This document shows, one piece after another, positions 20,620 to 29,305 of a stretch of DNA of 51,662 nt. Where the stretch lies: sequence record NC_049826.1; one strand, 5' to 3'. Both the position numbers and the translations under genes were made by a program. The notes beneath the pieces were generated by a model that was not told where the DNA came from, did not search any database, and worked only from the letters and a program-made list of their open reading frames with translations. Every line of letters starts with the position of its first letter. Within the stretch, counting starts at the first letter, position 1. Source of the DNA: Escherichia phage aaroes.

Positions 20620-20623
20620 CAAA

Positions 20624-20647
20624 GGCTGGTAAATCCAGCCTTTTTTA
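20624..20647 (+). terminator. intrinsic terminator
   Basis: GGCTGG-taaat-CCAGCC plus a 6-T run. Confidence 0.8.
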
Positions 20648-20661
20648 TTGGAGGAAAGATA

Positions 20662-21942
20662 ATGAGTAAATCACGAATCGTTAAGGCTGACGGCTATAAC
20701 GAGATCTTTAAAGGCGAGAATTGCAAATCGCGAGTAGAACAACCATTCTACATGCAATCAATGCCATACAAGACGCTTGCTGACTTTTACGAAAAAGATG
20801 GCCTGGCAAAAAGGATTATTGACGTAGTACCAGAGGAAATGGTTTCCCCTGGCTTTACTGTTGACGGCGTGGCAGACGAGGCTGCATTCCGTTCTTTGTG
20901 GGATGAAAAGCGATTGAATGCAAAAATTATTGATGCGCTTTGCTGGTCGCGTTTGTTTGGCGGATCTGCAATCATTGCTCTTGTTCAGGATGGGCGAGCA
21001 CTCAAATCACCTGTAAAGCCTGGCGCTGTGCTGGAAGATGTTCGCGTTTACGATCGTTATCAGATTCGCGTTGAAGCGCGCGAAACTAATCCCCGCAAGG
21101 TTCGCTATGGTGAGCCAGTGCTTTACACTGTAACGCCAGGCGGAGACTTGCCGGAATACCAGGTACATTACACGCGCGTTTGCATTATCGACGGTGAGCG
21201 GATACCTAACGCAAAGCGACGCAGCAATGATGGCTGGGGTGAGTCAGTTCTTAACAAGCGACTTGTTGAGGCTATTGTTGATTATAACTATTGTGAAACA
21301 TTGGCAACGCAATTATTGCGGAGGAAACAACAGGCGGTATGGAAGGCTAAAGGACTTGCTGACTTGTGCGATGATGAGGAAGGCGTTAGCGCAGCACGTC
21401 TGAGACTTGCGCAGGTTGACGATGAGGGTGGCGTAGGTAGGGCCATTGGTATTGATGCTGAGGATGAGGAATATGATGTTCTTAACTCTGACATTAGCGG
21501 CGTTGATTCTTTCTTGGAAAAGAAAATGGATCGCATAGTTTCCCTTTCAGGTATTCATGAAATCATCCTGAAAAATAAAAACGTTGGCGGCGTTAGCGCA
21601 AGCCAAAACACGGCGCTTGAAACATTCTATAAGCTGATTGAACGAAAACGCGTTGAGGATTACAAGCCTATCCTTGAATTTCTATTGCCGTTCATCATTA
21701 GCGAGCAGGAGTGGAGCATTGAGTTTTCACCTTTGAGCGTACCTAGCGATAAAGATCAGGCTGAAATTCTGAATAAGAATATCGACTCAATCAGCAAGGC
21801 TATTGATGGTCAGTTCCTTGATGTTGAAGAGGCGCGCGACACGTTGCGAGCAATCGCCCCAAGCGTTAAACTAAAGGACACTAATAAAATAAAGCTGCCG
21901 GAGCCATCGGAGCCGGAGCCAGGCACACAGGGGAATGAGTAA
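20662..21942 (+). CDS. portal protein
   Basis: 426-aa ORF directly after TerL with an acidic C-terminus; call rests on position and size. Confidence 0.65.
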   Translation: MSKSRIVKADGYNEIFKGENCKSRVEQPFYMQSMPYKTLADFYEKDGLAKRIIDVVPEEMVSPGFTVDGVADEAAFRSLWDEKRLNAKIIDALCWSRLFGGSAIIALVQDGRALKSPVKPGAVLEDVRVYDRYQIRVEARETNPRKVRYGEPVLYTVTPGGDLPEYQVHYTRVCIIDGERIPNAKRRSNDGWGESVLNKRLVEAIVDYNYCETLATQLLRRKQQAVWKAKGLADLCDDEEGVSAARLRLAQVDDEGGVGRAIGIDAEDEEYDVLNSDISGVDSFLEKKMDRIVSLSGIHEIILKNKNVGGVSASQNTALETFYKLIERKRVEDYKPILEFLLPFIISEQEWSIEFSPLSVPSDKDQAEILNKNIDSISKAIDGQFLDVEEARDTLRAIAPSVKLKDTNKIKLPEPSEPEPGTQGNE

Positions 21943-22706
21943 TGAAAGTGAATGGCGTCGTTAAACAATGGCGCTTTCCTGAAGCAAGCGAGCGGCAATT
22001 TAGCCGCTCAATTCAGGAGGCAATTAGAGATCTTGTGGTTCTCATGCGCAAGCGTACAAAAGCGATGAAGTTTGACGCAACAGATAATGAGATCAACAGC
22101 GCAGAAGATGAAATTAACAGCCTGGCAACTGACCTTATAGCTGGCATTGTTTCCACTCTTCCTGCAATCGCGTTGACCATCTATAAATTCAATGCGAAGC
22201 AGTTCATAAATGTTGCCAAGTCAACTGGCGGAAAGGATAACACGGCGGTAATTGTTTTGATCGCGGTTGGCGCTAACGCTAACGAGGAGTGGTATCATAC
22301 GCTTTACGGGCAATGGCACGGACTTACAGAATCATCGCTAAGGAAATTGTTCACAAACATTGCGTCTGACTGGTCAACAAACATTCGCAATGCAAACTTT
22401 CGTGGAAGCAATGATAAACAGGTTAATGATCTTGCAGAAAAGAGATTTGCTGTTTATAGCTCCTGGGGTAAAACGAGATCAGAAAACATTATCGGCGCGT
22501 GGAATAGTCGCCTGATGCGCCAGCGCCTTTATGATGCTAAAGTAACTCATTATTTCTGGCATGGAATGTTAGATGATAGAGAGCGCTTGCAGCATGTGTT
22601 ATGGGAAGGTAAAAGAATAGCTCTTGATGCAATTCATGATTTCCCTGGTGAGCCGTGGGGTTGCCGTTGCTGGGCGATTCCAGATTGGAATAGTAAAGGA
22701 GAGTAA
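21942..22706 (+). CDS. head morphogenesis protein (Mu F / SPP1 gp7-like)
   Basis: Position after portal; C-terminal GMLDDRERLQHVLWEG block resembles the Mu F family signature as I recall it. Confidence 0.55.
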   Translation: MKVNGVVKQWRFPEASERQFSRSIQEAIRDLVVLMRKRTKAMKFDATDNEINSAEDEINSLATDLIAGIVSTLPAIALTIYKFNAKQFINVAKSTGGKDNTAVIVLIAVGANANEEWYHTLYGQWHGLTESSLRKLFTNIASDWSTNIRNANFRGSNDKQVNDLAEKRFAVYSSWGKTRSENIIGAWNSRLMRQRLYDAKVTHYFWHGMLDDRERLQHVLWEGKRIALDAIHDFPGEPWGCRCWAIPDWNSKGE

Positions 22707-22709
22707 TTA

Positions 22710-23822
22710 ATGAAGGCAAAACAAAGATTTGATAGCGTCAAGGTTAAAGCGCATTTTGATGATAATGGCTTTTTAGTGGATCGCCCAATTGTGGCGCGAA
22801 TTGGCTTACAGGAGTATCACACACCGTATGGAATCAGACGAGAGTTCAGACCAGCGTCCGAGGTGTTCAAAGCTGATTCCCTTGCCACGTTCGCAGGCAA
22901 GCCGATAACTATCGGTCACGTAACGGTAACACCGGACAATGCGGATCAGGTTGTTGTTGGTTCATGCGCTGGTGCTGGTGTTCCAAATGGTGTTGGCGTT
23001 GAAGTTCCGTTAAGCATTTACTCAAAGCGAGCAATTGAGAGCGCAAAAAAGAAAGACACAGCCGAAATTTCAGTTGGTTACACATCCATTGATATTGATA
23101 AGCCAGGCTGGGGCAACAATAAAACTGGTGATTACTTATTTGAGGAAGACATTAAAGAAGACTGGAAGCCTGATTCTCCTGATTGGGTCAAATTTGACGC
23201 CATTCAGACGAATATCCGTGTCAACCACATTGCGCTTGTCTTTCGTGGTCGTGCTGGCATTGCCAAATTAAATCTTGATAGTGAACAAGATTTTCCGTAT
23301 AGTGACGAGATTCTAAATGACAAAGGAGATGAGGAAATGACAGTAAAAATTAAACTTGATGGCGCGGTAGAATTTGATGTTCCAAAGGCCGTTGCTGATC
23401 ATATTGAGGTGTTAAAGGCAGATGCAAAAGCTGCAACCGAAAAAGCTGATGGCCTTGAGGCCGAGCGCGACGCCCTGAAAACTAAAGTCGATGGCATTCC
23501 GGCGCAGATTGCAGAAGCTGTTAAGAAGGCAAAGACTGACGCAGAAGAACACGCCAAGCTAGTTGCAGATGCAACTGAAATTGGCATCAAGTGTGACGGC
23601 TTGGACGCTAAAGCGATCAAAGTTGCTTACGTCAAAGAAGTCACTGGCGCTGATATTTCAGAAAAAGCCGACGCATATATTGAAACAGCTTTTGACCTTG
23701 CGAAGCAGTCTGATAAAATGGCGGCGCAGCGTAAATATGTTAAGGGCGATTCTTTCGAATCTGGCAAGAGTGAAAAAACCGACTCCCTTGATCCGACTGC
23801 GCGTTTGAAAAAACTTAAATAA
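22710..23822 (+). CDS. scaffolding-like protein (possible protease-scaffold fusion)
   Basis: C-terminal half is a charged Ala/Lys/Glu coiled coil; sits between morphogenesis and capsid genes. Confidence 0.45.
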   Translation: MKAKQRFDSVKVKAHFDDNGFLVDRPIVARIGLQEYHTPYGIRREFRPASEVFKADSLATFAGKPITIGHVTVTPDNADQVVVGSCAGAGVPNGVGVEVPLSIYSKRAIESAKKKDTAEISVGYTSIDIDKPGWGNNKTGDYLFEEDIKEDWKPDSPDWVKFDAIQTNIRVNHIALVFRGRAGIAKLNLDSEQDFPYSDEILNDKGDEEMTVKIKLDGAVEFDVPKAVADHIEVLKADAKAATEKADGLEAERDALKTKVDGIPAQIAEAVKKAKTDAEEHAKLVADATEIGIKCDGLDAKAIKVAYVKEVTGADISEKADAYIETAFDLAKQSDKMAAQRKYVKGDSFESGKSEKTDSLDPTARLKKLK

Positions 23823-23834
23823 GGAGAAATAAAC

Positions 23835-24347
23835 ATGGCTACAATTGGAGCAAGTTATTTTGCTGTAATGTCTCGTGCGTTACCTGGTCAGGTGTCTGAC
23901 ACTTCAGCTTATAATATTGATGGCGCTTGTGTTCTTGAGAATGCGGAAGGCAACCAGAACAAAAACATTTTTGTTGGTGTTGCAGTCCAGCATGGCGGCG
24001 TTGATGCTATGGGCAATAAGCTAATTAAGCCGATGGCGGCAAGCGGCAAGGCTTACGGTGTTGCAATTCGATCCCACTTCCAGACTACTTCTGCTGACGG
24101 TCGAATGATTTATGAATCTGGCGGCGGAATCAACGTAATGACTGAAGGGCGTGTTTGGATGTTGGCTAAAGACGCCACCGCTCCAGCGTTCGGAACTACA
24201 ATCAAACTGTCTGATGATGGTCAGGTTGATACCACGTCTGGCACTATCGAAACAAACTGGATCGCGACTGGTGATTTCACCAAGTTTCAAGACTTGAAGC
24301 TGGTAGAGGTTCAGGTGCAAAAAGTTCCGGTAGTTCCAGCAGGTTAA
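23835..24347 (+). CDS. head-associated structural protein, paralog A (possible decoration protein)
   Basis: Shares blocks with the next ORF (GRVWMLAKDATAPAFG vs GSVWCLTSESEAPEYG); strong RBS. Confidence 0.45.
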   Translation: MATIGASYFAVMSRALPGQVSDTSAYNIDGACVLENAEGNQNKNIFVGVAVQHGGVDAMGNKLIKPMAASGKAYGVAIRSHFQTTSADGRMIYESGGGINVMTEGRVWMLAKDATAPAFGTTIKLSDDGQVDTTSGTIETNWIATGDFTKFQDLKLVEVQVQKVPVVPAG

Positions 24348-24354
24348 TAAATAT

Positions 24355-24378
24355 GGCGCTCAGTGAGCGCCTTTTTTA
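24355..24378 (+). terminator. intrinsic terminator between the two paralogs
   Basis: GGCGC-tcagtga-GCGCC then 6 T. Confidence 0.75.
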
Positions 24379-24392
24379 TATTTGGAGTTCTC

Positions 24393-24827
24393 ATGAGTGA
24401 TTATTCAGTCATTGTTGGCGCTGAGTCGCCAGGATGCATGGTTGATTCTTCAATAATGGTGATTAATGGTTCTTTTGTATGTGGAGACGAGTTTATTTCA
24501 CCAGGTAAGATTGTAAGGTTATCATATATATCAAGCGGATATAAAATAGTCAGTGTTAATGGTGATCTAGTTATTGGCGTGGCAGTAAGACCGCCGGACT
24601 CGTGCATATATGAGGAGGGTGATCCCGTTAATGTGGTTAGTAGAGGTAGTGTGTGGTGCTTAACTTCTGAGAGCGAAGCGCCAGAATATGGAGATAAAGT
24701 ATTTGTAACGCAAGATGGAGATGCGGCATACAGTGAAGGCTACTTGCTGAGCGGTTGGATCTTTACTGGCGAACATGTAAAGGTTGATCATGATTCATAT
24801 ATTGTCGGGGTAAGCATTAGCGCATAA
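24393..24827 (+). CDS. head-associated structural protein, paralog B
   Basis: GGAG RBS before ATG 24393; paralogous to 23835-24347. Confidence 0.45.
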   Translation: MSDYSVIVGAESPGCMVDSSIMVINGSFVCGDEFISPGKIVRLSYISSGYKIVSVNGDLVIGVAVRPPDSCIYEEGDPVNVVSRGSVWCLTSESEAPEYGDKVFVTQDGDAAYSEGYLLSGWIFTGEHVKVDHDSYIVGVSISA

Positions 24828-24846
24828 CACAAAATTATGTTGCACG

Positions 24847-24865
24847 TTTAACAAAAAATGCTATC
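24847..24865 (-). promoter_or_regulatory. inverted copy of the early repeat core upstream of the capsid gene
   Basis: Plus strand TTTAACAAAAAATGCTATC is the reverse complement of ATAGCATTTTTTGTTAAA; minus-strand CATAAT lies 6 nt beyond it. Confidence 0.4.
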
Positions 24866-24910
24866 ATTGTGGCGTTACATACTAACAGCCTTTATATATG
24901 GAGGAAGAAA

Positions 24911-25885
24911 ATGGAAAAAGAAAAATTTGATCAGCTAGATGCGGATATTGTTTCTAGTTATCTGGCTACTCGCGGCGTTAAGGGTGATGCTTCTGATATG
25001 GGTATCTGGACGGCGCAAGAGCTTCACAAGATCCGCTCAACTGCTTACGAGAAAGAATATCCTGCAGGTTCAGCGCTTCGTGTATTCCCTGTAACTAATG
25101 AGCTTTCTGATACTGATAAGACTTTTGAATATCAGATGTTTGACAAAGTTGGTTACGCAAAAATTATCGCTGATTACACCGACGACCTGCCGACCGTTGA
25201 CGCGCTGATGTCCAGCGAATTTGGTAAAGTGTTCCGCTTGGGTAACGCGTTCTTGATCTCCATTGACGAAATCAAGGCTGGTCAGCGCACTGGTAAGAGC
25301 CTTTCCACTCGCAAGGCAAACGCAGCACAAAACGCTCATGATCAGGAAGTTAACCGCCTGGTGTTTAAGGGTTCAAAGCCGCATAAGATTCTTTCGGTGT
25401 TTGAACATCCTAACCTGACAAAGATCGTGTCAACTGGCTGGTTAAGTGCTGATGAAAACACTAAGTTCCCGCAGGCAGCATCTGATGAACTGGAAAAGGC
25501 TATTGAAACCATTCAGACCATCACCAATGGTCAGCACCGAGCAACCAACATCCTGATTCCGCCGTCTATGCGCAAGGTTCTTTCCGTTCGAATGGAAAAC
25601 ACCACTGAAAGTTATCTGGAATACTTCCAGAAACAAAACAGCGGAATCACCATTGACTCAATCGCAGAGCTTGAGGATATTGATGGCACAGGAACGAAAG
25701 GTTGCCTGGTATATGAGAAAGACCCGATGAACATGTCGATCGAAATTCCAGAAGCATTTAACATGCTTCCGGCGCAACCAAAAGATCTGCATTTCAAAGT
25801 TCCGTGCACTTCAAAATGTACTGGCCTGACGATTTACCGTCCGTTTACGCTAGTGCTTATTACTGGCTTGAAAAAATCAGGTTAA
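24911..25885 (+). CDS. major capsid protein
   Basis: 325 aa from GGAGGAAGAAA RBS; position after scaffold; followed by a strong terminator. Confidence 0.65.
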   Translation: MEKEKFDQLDADIVSSYLATRGVKGDASDMGIWTAQELHKIRSTAYEKEYPAGSALRVFPVTNELSDTDKTFEYQMFDKVGYAKIIADYTDDLPTVDALMSSEFGKVFRLGNAFLISIDEIKAGQRTGKSLSTRKANAAQNAHDQEVNRLVFKGSKPHKILSVFEHPNLTKIVSTGWLSADENTKFPQAASDELEKAIETIQTITNGQHRATNILIPPSMRKVLSVRMENTTESYLEYFQKQNSGITIDSIAELEDIDGTGTKGCLVYEKDPMNMSIEIPEAFNMLPAQPKDLHFKVPCTSKCTGLTIYRPFTLVLITGLKKSG

Positions 25886-25897
25886 TCGTATAACATT

Positions 25898-25927
25898 GGG
25901 GAATCCTTAACTGGATTCCCTTTTTTA
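25898..25927 (+). terminator. intrinsic terminator after the capsid gene
   Basis: GGGAATCC-ttaact-GGATTCCC plus a 6-T run. Confidence 0.85.
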
Positions 25928-25941
25928 TTGGAGGTTATGAA

Positions 25942-26214
25942 ATGGCTAAAGAAAAAACTGTAACGCTAAAGGTTTCCGGCGTATGCCTTATCATTGTTGA
26001 TGGTGAGCATTATCATCCAGGCAAAGAGTTTGACGTAGAAGAATCAAAGTTGAAAACAAGCGCGTTTGAATATCTAATTGCAAAAGGCGATCTGGAGGTC
26101 AAAGATAACTCCGCATTGAACGAAGAAATCAAACAGAGCGCAGCAAGCAAACGTAAAAAAGACCCGCGAGAGGGCAAGAGCAAAGCCGAACTTGAAGACG
26201 GCGGCATCTATTAA
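25942..26214 (+). CDS. hypothetical head-region protein (90 aa)
   Basis: GGAGG RBS; charged C-terminus. Confidence 0.45.
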
Positions 26215-26220
26215 TAAAGA

Positions 26221-26240
26221 GGGCGCTTATAGCGCCCTTT
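26221..26240 (+). terminator. candidate terminator (weak U-tract)
   Basis: GGGCGCT-tat-AGCGCCC followed by TTTG. Confidence 0.4.
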
Positions 26241-26261
26241 GTCATATCTGGAGGAAACACA

Positions 26262-26678
26262 ATGGTTGATGAATTTTTCACTGACGCAGAAATCACGCAG
26301 CAAATCGTGAAATTAGCGCCACCGATGAAGCAGATTGATCCAGATTTAATGGTGGCATGGATTGAGCTTGCAAAGGAATTTGTTTGCAAGAAGCGGTTTA
26401 AAGAATCATATCCAAAAGCGGTTGCTCTTTATACGTTGCACCTTATGACGCTTGACGGAGCTATGAAGCAAGAAGGGGAAAGCGTAGAGAGTTACTCACG
26501 GCGCGTGGCGTCATTTTCCCTGACTGGTGAATTTAGCCAGACTTTTGATCGAGTGTCAGGCGACTCTGACGGAAAAGAGATTAGACAAACTCCCTGGGGG
26601 AAAATGTACGAAACGCTAAATCGTAAGAAAGGCGGTGGATTTGGCCTTGTGACTGGATTTCGGAGGCGTTGCAAATGA
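26262..26678 (+). CDS. head-tail connector/adaptor protein (putative)
   Basis: First of four overlapping ORFs between capsid and tail-tube genes; call rests on position. Confidence 0.45.
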
Positions 26679-28538: not shown

Positions 28539-28543
28539 TCACA

Positions 28544-28566
28544 AGGGGCGTTGCGCCCCTTTTTTT
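28544..28566 (+). terminator. intrinsic terminator after the tail tube gene
   Basis: AGGGGCG-ttg-CGCCCCT plus a 7-T run. Confidence 0.85.
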
Positions 28567-28605: not shown

Positions 28606-28625
28606 TTTTAACAAAAAGTGCTATC
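28606..28625 (-). promoter_or_regulatory. inverted copy of the early repeat core upstream of the tail chaperone gene
   Basis: Plus strand TTTTAACAAAAAGTGCTATC is the exact reverse complement of the early core; flanked upstream by TACAAT and CATAAT. Confidence 0.4.
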
Positions 28626-28955: not shown

Positions 28956-29266
28956 AAAGGGCGGTTTACCTGTTTTATCAGAAACCGCCGACAGATGCAG
29001 AGCTTGAGGCAGTTGGCCTTACAAGGGCAGACTATGAAGGAGAAGATCCGCCAGAGGTTATATTTGATGAAAGCATGATGCAATCATGGGATATATTTTG
29101 CGCAATGCAAACGCAATGGCGATGTTCTGGCGGTGGCGCTTACGGATTTGATTATAATGTCTTGCCTATGCTTTTTGAGATTTACAAGGTTGAGGATCGC
29201 GAGATGGCGCTAAACGACTTGCGAATCATGGAGCAAAAAGCACTTGAAATGATGCATTCAAAATAA
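28638..29266 (+). CDS. tail assembly chaperone frameshift product (gpGT analogue, -1 shift near 28952)
   Basis: The -1 frame is open from 28946 to the stop at 29264-29266. Confidence 0.55.
28946..28990 (+). other. programmed -1 ribosomal frameshift signal (slippery heptamer plus downstream hairpin)
   Basis: A-AAA-AAC at 28946-28952; stem GGCGGTTT (28960-28967) / AAACCGCC (28983-28990) 7 nt downstream. Confidence 0.6.
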
Positions 29267-29305
29267 GCGCCTACGGGCGCTTTTTTATTACCTGGAGGAT
29301 TAATA

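Follow-up and report, generated by a model that had tools for sequence, protein, structure and literature searches.

Tandem paralogous cement genes flanking a predicted intrinsic terminator in the head region of Escherichia phage aaroes

Directly upstream of the major capsid protein (MCP) gene, the DNA of Escherichia phage aaroes (NC_049826.1; the whole stretch of 51,662 nucleotides is referred to as the window) carries two similar open reading frames (ORFs) in tandem with a terminator-like hairpin between them. Why are two versions of one capsid-region protein kept side by side, and why would transcription be broken between them? Both ORFs lie on the + strand, ORF1 (c1, 170 residues) at 23835-24347 and ORF2 (c2, 144 residues) at 24393-24827, within a region (22700-26300) that is 97.6% identical to Escherichia phage vB_EcoS_G29-2 (G29-2; Drexlerviridae, Tempevirinae, Hanrivervirus) and 96% identical to many further coliphages and Shigella phages. 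We consider it likely that c1 and c2 are the major and minor subunits of a trimeric cement lattice like that of phage T1, with c2 made at a low level through terminator read-through and placed in about 60 heterotrimers by the pentons. The existence of paired cement paralogs and their 6:1 ratio is already published for T1 (PMC11945409). Added here are the assignment of the Hanrivervirus pair to the T1 system, a minor subunit that lacks an immunoglobulin-like (Ig) domain, and a candidate low-expression slot that is variable across the family; two genes called 'hypothetical' thereby gain a specific structural role.

We found c1 and c2 to be true duplicates of the cement family. BLASTP aligned ORF1 with ORF2 at E = 5e-14 with 28% identity over 116 residues, and their Smith-Waterman score of 128 compares with 29.6 ± 4.9 (maximum 59) in 2000 shuffles (z = 20). 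A preliminary description of this locus had proposed a duplication on the basis of shared blocks, GRVWMLAKDATAPAFG and GSVWCLTSESEAPEYG, and had named pairwise alignment against shuffled controls as its test; both blocks are present and the alignment is significant. The two ORFs pass, over nearly their full length, the gathering thresholds (27 bits) of the Pfam families Phage_cement (PF22758) and XM1_gp53 (PF23982), and both match phrog_1989. ORF1 scored 93.1 bits (E = 2.4e-26) and 65.5 bits against PF22758 and PF23982 respectively, and ORF2 scored 52.7 bits (E = 6.3e-14) and 90.0 bits (E = 1.8e-25).

Family membership and matches to the solved T1 capsid chains point to a cement role for both proteins, in keeping with the decoration or cement function first suggested for them. 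c1, the ortholog of T1 gp49, matched the T1 cement protein chain (PDB 9KZJ/9KMG, 158 residues) with E = 9.8e-47 over residues 1-162 and is 55% identical to gp49; its N-terminus, MATIGASYFAVMSRALPG, aligns gap-free with that of gp49, MAQINASYQRDMAIALPG. c2 matched the gp49 chain with E = 1.2e-10, and T1 gp48 (9kzj_H, a 255-residue 'BIG2 domain-containing protein') with E = 5e-10 over residues 9-142, the identity to the N-terminal domain of gp48 being 38%. The N-terminus of c2 is four residues shorter and divergent, as in gp48. c2 consists of the cement domain alone, with the alignment stopping exactly at the last strand of the domain. Pfam found no Big_2 (the C-terminal Ig-like domain) in ORF2; the c2 proteins of T1, tunus and swan01 carry one or two.

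The T1 capsid, as determined by cryo-electron microscopy, contains 415 MCP copies, and its cement layer consists of 80 gp49 homotrimers and 60 heterotrimers of one gp48 and two gp49 subunits, amounting to 360 and 60 copies (PMC11945409). The N-terminal arm of gp49 reaches the inner capsid surface, while gp48 lies only on the outside with its flexible C-terminal Ig domain directed outward, a domain proposed by the authors to aid adsorption (PMC11945409). According to the legend of Figure 2 in the same paper, a hexon and a penton are shown together with six trimers, four of them homotrimers and two heterotrimers (PMC11945409). On our reading, these six trimers encircle the hexon shown. The geometry of a T=7 lattice puts a penton in contact with exactly two of the six trimer sites that ring any hexon, and 12 x 5 such sites give 60. 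We therefore take the T1 heterotrimers to adjoin the pentons, with gp48 over the penton subunit, a placement that is our own and absent from the T1 paper. By analogy with this homologous pair, which has the same gene order and a 360:60 ratio of gp49 to gp48 (PMC11945409), c1 and c2 probably also differ in stoichiometry, as had been supposed. The capsid paper on the siphophage Sf11 (PMC12724387) was set aside as irrelevant here, its decoration protein being that of another phage lineage.

The sequence between the two genes contains a stem of seven pairs, six of them G-C, with a 3-nucleotide loop (GGCGCTC-AGT-GAGCGCC, 24355-24371, + strand), followed by TTTTTT at 24372-24377. The hairpin starts 7 nucleotides past the c1 stop codon and folds at -13.3 kcal/mol (z = -3.2), with one of 200 shuffles folding as well, and the same site carries a terminator annotation in the 97.6%-identical G29-2. 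We predict that 24355-24377 is a textbook intrinsic terminator, and the terminator that the preliminary description had placed between the two ORFs thus stands. A scan of the whole window against Rfam gave no family at gathering score. The terminator stem, like the promoter-like site upstream of the MCP gene (see below), is unchanged in 7 Hanriverviruses (dS 0.16), among which only a loop base and the ribosome-binding-site region vary. We surveyed 93 loci from annotated phage records and IMG/VR, 86 of them distinct, and found a hairpin and T run 3' of the c1 stop codon in essentially every distinct locus, mostly at -9 to -19 kcal/mol; the same search was positive in 6% of random 75-nucleotide windows. 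At least 12 different stem sequences occur at this position, including a compensatory change between T1 (ACTATCC/GGATAGT) and swan01 (ACCATCC/GGATGGT). The T1 gp49-gp48 terminator, with a stem GGGGACTATCC...GGATAGTCC followed by T7 (-17.8 kcal/mol), is unrelated to the window stem. Terminators at this position are already annotated in the records of G29-2 and Stevie.

The context of c2 suggests that it is expressed at a lower level than c1. The c1-c2 gap is 45 nucleotides long here and 43-62 nucleotides in hand-checked relatives (61 in T1, where the gp48-MCP gap is 90), and contains the terminator and a ribosome-binding site only; we found no promoter-like site in the gap of the window. The c2 ribosome-binding site, read from the sequence, is a weak GGAG at 24384-24387 (+ strand; GGGG in some relatives), as opposed to a strong AAGGAG for c1. 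The next promoter-like site lies 3' of ORF2, at 24840-24867 (+ strand), and reads TTGCAC, 16 nucleotides, TGcTATCAT (an extended -10). A site of the form TTG(C/A)(A/C)(C/G)-(G/C)TTTAACAAAAA(A/G)TGCTAT(C/T)AT is present in the c2-MCP gap of nine out of nine diverse hand-checked relatives. The window copy stands at 8/12 plus TG, below the scan cut-off, and its T1 equivalent (TTGACG, 16 nucleotides, TGcTATTAT) at 10/12 plus TG; the window copy also overlaps a genome-wide repeat, TTTAACAAAAAATGCTAT. A gap without room for a promoter, the weak GGAG and the position of the next promoter-like site are all consistent with the lower expression of the second gene that had been expected.

We place the start of c2 at ATG 24393, preceded by the GGAG at 24384-24387, where the N-terminus MSDY(G/S) aligns with homologs. 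The mechanical ORF2 start at GTG 24363 was rejected, because it falls within the terminator stem and the alignment with homologs begins at ATG 24393. A c1-c2 fusion by stop-codon read-through, the two genes being in the same frame here, is excluded because c1 ends in a double stop, TAATAA, and because the frame relation varies among relatives.

Taken together with the T1 structure, these signals suggest how the pair may work. As in T1, the capsid would have the HK97 fold and T=7 symmetry, and trimers of c1 and c2 would clamp its three-fold and quasi-three-fold junctions. c1 would be abundant, as the last gene of a portal-to-cement transcription unit, with a strong ribosome-binding site and a message that ends at the intrinsic terminator. 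c2, lying between the terminator and the putative MCP promoter, would be made only from read-through transcripts and at a fraction of the c1 level, because it has no promoter of its own and a weak ribosome-binding site. Transcription would then restart for MCP, the most abundant protein, and the MCP terminator at 25898 would follow. In about 60 trimers c2 would replace one c1 subunit, which would give roughly 360 c1 to 60 c2 per virion, and these trimers would adjoin the pentons. Because c2 is without the outward Big_2 domain of T1 gp48, its conserved job in Hanrivervirus would be structural rather than adhesive. What we infer is how efficiently the terminator works, that c2 is part of the virion, that it enters heterotrimers and that these lie next to the pentons.

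Several points weigh against this reading, the first group of which concerns expression. Our literature searches for Hanrivervirus, Tlsvirus and T1-like phages yielded no transcriptome or quantitative proteome, only a sodium dodecyl sulfate polyacrylamide gel of phage TLS, on which a single band of ~18 kDa was assigned to a decoration protein (PMC11447400). The unit transcribed with c1 also encodes low-copy proteins, the portal among them, so translation must account for much of the ratio. The terminator also follows c1 in ~26 relatives that are without c2, hence its primary role may differ and it did not evolve specifically to tune c2. For these two reasons the first function of the terminator is probably to end and stabilise the c1 message and to insulate the MCP promoter, c2 just occupying the low-expression interval that results. 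A stronger version, in which a stable c1 mRNA 3' end and the shielding of the MCP promoter are its main job and the level of c2 is set mainly by the weak ribosome-binding site, overlaps with the reading we favour and seems to us somewhat unlikely. It can draw on the c2-less loci, in 21 of which the gap to the capsid gene is at most 150 nucleotides, on the terminators that follow other abundant structural genes (MCP, 25898; major tail protein, 28543) and on the GGAG or GGGG of c2 compared with AAGGAG for c1. However, a 7-bp G-C stem with T6 and no downstream promoter must lower c2 transcription, and the two roles are compatible.

The second group of adverse points concerns the c2 protein and its orthology with gp48. 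An AlphaFold2 model of c2, built from a 15-sequence alignment, was unusable (mean predicted local distance difference test score 47.7, and scores under 50 for residues 1-84). c2 matches gp49 and gp48 with about the same score. In a neighbour-joining tree built from 49 dereplicated domains, all c1 proteins, including those of c2-less lineages, fall separately from all c2 proteins, but this split was recovered in 63 of 100 bootstraps, so that c2-gp48 orthology is only moderately supported. In addition, the histories of the two pairs may differ, since T1 gp49 and gp48 are 44% identical and the window c1 and c2 29%. The simplest account is a single ancient duplication followed by losses. It is unlikely, in our estimation, that c1 was duplicated separately to give the window c2 and T1 gp48, or that gene conversion homogenised them, so that they are analogs in one slot rather than orthologs. 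The T1-type c2 does lie nearest the c1 clade and shares the c1 motif PG..SDTS.YNIDGACV, which together with the bootstrap value argues for such an origin, whereas the separation of all c1 from all c2 and the shortened N-terminus, slot and flanking signals that c2 proteins have in common argue against it.

The same divergence within the window pair, and a gp48 orthology that is not firm, also bear on how c2 might be arranged. c2 could be present in the virion without 1:2 heterotrimers, forming homotrimers of its own at some sites only (such as the 20 strict three-folds, which would also take 60 copies) or around the portal vertex, and a low-expression context would suit any low-copy site. We regard this as improbable, given that the sole solved relative has heterotrimers and that c1 and c2 have been transferred together as one cassette, which suggests a direct partnership. 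The evidence for transfer comes from the Warwickviruses swan01 and tunus. On either side the two genomes are 97.5% identical, the left flank reaching to about codon 33 of c1 and the right flank starting at the MCP promoter repeat, whereas the swan01 cassette of c1 body, terminator and c2 is T1-like and unrelated to that of tunus (locus L008, 2024-3473, versus L005; L002 is T1). The exchange of c1 and c2 as a unit fits proteins that must match or co-assemble. In its own right, the swan01/tunus comparison is a clean case of cassette exchange by recombination at conserved sequences.

Across the 86 distinct loci, the order c1, c2, MCP was found in 60, and ~26 have no cement paralog. What lies between c1 and MCP is a bare cement paralog (144-168 residues) in 31 loci, including Hanrivervirus (144 residues) and Tlsvirus (146 residues), a paralog with one Big_2 domain (254-269 residues) in 27, T1 among them, and a paralog with two Big_2 domains (337 residues) in two, including swan01. 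The interval is empty, with a gap of at most 150 nucleotides, in 21 loci and contains unrelated ORFs in the remaining five, including collagen-repeat proteins. Pfam supports both the Big_2 calls and the absence of Big_2 from the bare forms. The unrelated ORFs occur in some 44-47 kb relatives (L083:3079-3781, L084:2984-3960, L090:2776-4246, L071:3029-4301); some encode long collagen-like G-P-Q repeats, one with a Pfam Collagen match and the others without a Pfam match.

Selection within Hanrivervirus speaks to whether the bare c2 still has a function. Among the 7 Hanriverviruses, the ratio of nonsynonymous to synonymous substitution rates (dN/dS) was 0.12 for c1, 0.19 for c2 and 0.06 for MCP, with a dS of ~0.16 for all three, and over 20 protein clusters at 85-95% identity all have a c2 of 144 residues. 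Purifying selection acts on c2. The gene is therefore very unlikely to be a decaying or dispensable gp48-like remnant minus its Ig domain, or a non-virion assembly factor, even though many relatives are without c2, the Big_2 domain linked to function by the T1 authors is absent here, and c2 evolves faster than c1 (longer branches, higher dN/dS). Besides the low dN/dS and the intact ORFs, the bare form is fixed in Tlsvirus and other groups as well. That whole genera keep a minor subunit without an Ig domain suggests that this subunit also matters for the lattice itself.

Returning to c2 as a read-through-expressed minor subunit, a broader proposal can be put forward more tentatively. The interval from terminator to MCP promoter may be a conserved low-expression slot of Drexlerviridae for sub-stoichiometric capsid accessories, in which read-through sets the ~6:1 ratio. 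The bare paralog might then show the ancestral role of the minor subunit, which would be to adapt the lattice to the five-fold vertices, Ig-based adhesion being a later add-on. We hold this wider proposal to be possible, though with less conviction than the assignment of c1 and c2. The locus would make it simple to test whether a terminator and a promoter can encode the stoichiometry of a virion. For T1-like therapeutic phages, it would also supply a natural site for display at low copy number (~60 per capsid), at which domains have repeatedly been gained and lost in nature.

The pair is embedded in a block of head genes. Upstream are the portal gene (20662-21942) and a gene for a Mu F-like head morphogenesis protein (21942-22706), followed, directly before c1, by the ORF at 22710-23822 (+ strand). 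The preliminary description had located the pair correctly between this ORF and the MCP gene, but its name of scaffold for the former did not hold, as the product is a prohead protease/scaffold fusion (DUF2213; Pfam PF09979, E = 6.7e-27; phrog_530 head maturation protease, E = 1.9e-110). Downstream, the MCP gene (324 residues; 24911-25885, + strand; Pfam PF09950, E = 8.1e-54; phrog_264, E = 1.2e-99) has the ribosome-binding site GGAGG at 24900-24904. It is followed by a predicted intrinsic terminator at 25898-25927 (+ strand, -17.1 kcal/mol), which is annotated in G29-2 and present in all relatives examined. A 90-residue DUF7444 protein is encoded directly after this terminator (25942-26214), without a preceding promoter-like site and with a hairpin behind it. 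Strong terminator-like hairpins on the + strand lie 3' of the TerL, MCP, DUF7444, major tail protein and tail chaperone genes (20621-20643, 25898-25921, 26220-26238, 28543-28561 and 29265-29282, respectively), and the late region, with 21 terminator-like sites compared with 10.7 expected, is divided into short modules.

A hairpin and T run also lie just 3' of the MCP promoter-like site, close to the expected 5' end of the transcript, at 24870-24891 and at equivalent positions in L004, L005, L008 and L012. Relatives have a strong form of the hairpin (GGCCGTTACATTTAACGGCC, then a T run), with a compensatory change in PGN590; it could stabilise the 5' end or act as a second barrier against read-through. 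In the window it is weak (z = -0.3), and we did not retain it as a significant structure.

A repeat of ~19 nucleotides, TTTTAACAAAAAGTGCTAT, occurs in 15 copies in the window, compared with 1.45 expected, and is mostly intergenic. Nine copies are on the + strand (3231, 5398, 6074, 8113, 8619, 9497, 24850, 28610 and 39431) and six on the - strand (10901, 11364, 13664, 16369, 48123 and 50647). It is the reverse complement of a 21-nucleotide direct repeat reported for phage TLS (PMC11447400). Relative to the genes, its orientation in the early arms is opposite to that of the copies before the MCP and tail chaperone genes, and at 28610 and 48123 it directly abuts a ribosome-binding site. We rejected the repeat as a general promoter, owing to the reversed orientation in the early arms and the fact that only the copy before MCP has a -35 and a good -10. 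Instead of a plain promoter, the repeat may be the operator site of a phage regulator.

Public records for this gene family carry labels that are at odds with a cement role. In many records, Drexlerviridae cement genes bear the names 'putative zonula occludens toxin', 'major capsid protein', 'scaffolding protein' or 'BIG2 domain-containing protein' (L002, L003, L011, nucleotide matches), and in phiE31-2 the last of these names is attached to a truncated, 129-residue call of an Ig-less c2. These look like misnomers propagated between records. The host labels of some records also look doubtful. Nineteen records labelled as Campylobacter jejuni phages (MG0656xx, 'Campylobacter phage A1xx') are ~96% identical to the head region of this coliphage, and OR786094, 'Streptococcus phage MBBL140', labelled as a phage of Streptococcus agalactiae, encodes a c2 homolog at 40% identity, the same as that of the Tlsvirus Stevie.

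With respect to known systems, the window cement proteins can be compared at the level of fold, family, transcription and locus. The beta-tulip decoration trimers of lambda gpD and TW1 gp56 likewise occupy three-fold and quasi-three-fold sites of a T=7 capsid, and the T1 authors call gp49 and gp48 beta-tulip-like (PMC11945409). However, similarity in sequence between these decoration proteins and the window cement proteins is undetectable, and lambda gpD is a single homotrimeric species, added after expansion. Both window ORFs score above threshold in the Pfam families Phage_cement PF22758 (E217 gp24/Pam3 gp6) and XM1_gp53_minor_capsid PF23982. By description, the myophages E217, Pam3 and XM1 have a single cement protein, in contrast to the two tandem paralogs in unequal expression contexts found here. 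The T1 late region has been portrayed as consecutive modules, or 'transcriptons', with rho-independent terminators at their boundaries and promoters of the RpoD type (Roberts et al. 2004, as cited in PMC11447400). A similar layout is predicted for the window, where terminators follow the TerL, c1, MCP, gp33-like, major tail protein and tail assembly chaperone genes and the promoter-like repeat would restart transcription before the MCP and chaperone genes. As relayed in that citation, the transcripton description draws no tie between a terminator-promoter gap and the stoichiometry of cement paralogs.

The closest known system is the gp49/gp48 pair of T1 (PDB 9KZJ), also a member of Drexlerviridae. 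The order protease, major cement protein, terminator, minor paralog, promoter-like site and MCP is the same in both phages, c1 and c2 resemble gp49 and the N-terminal domain of gp48 (55% and 38% identity), and both minor paralogs have the shorter N-terminus. The two loci differ in that the window paralogs are more diverged from one another than those of T1 (29% versus 44% identity), in the unrelated sequence of the terminator stem, and in the minor subunit itself, since T1 gp48 extends to 255 residues with a proline linker and Big_2 whereas the 144-residue c2 is a bare cement domain.

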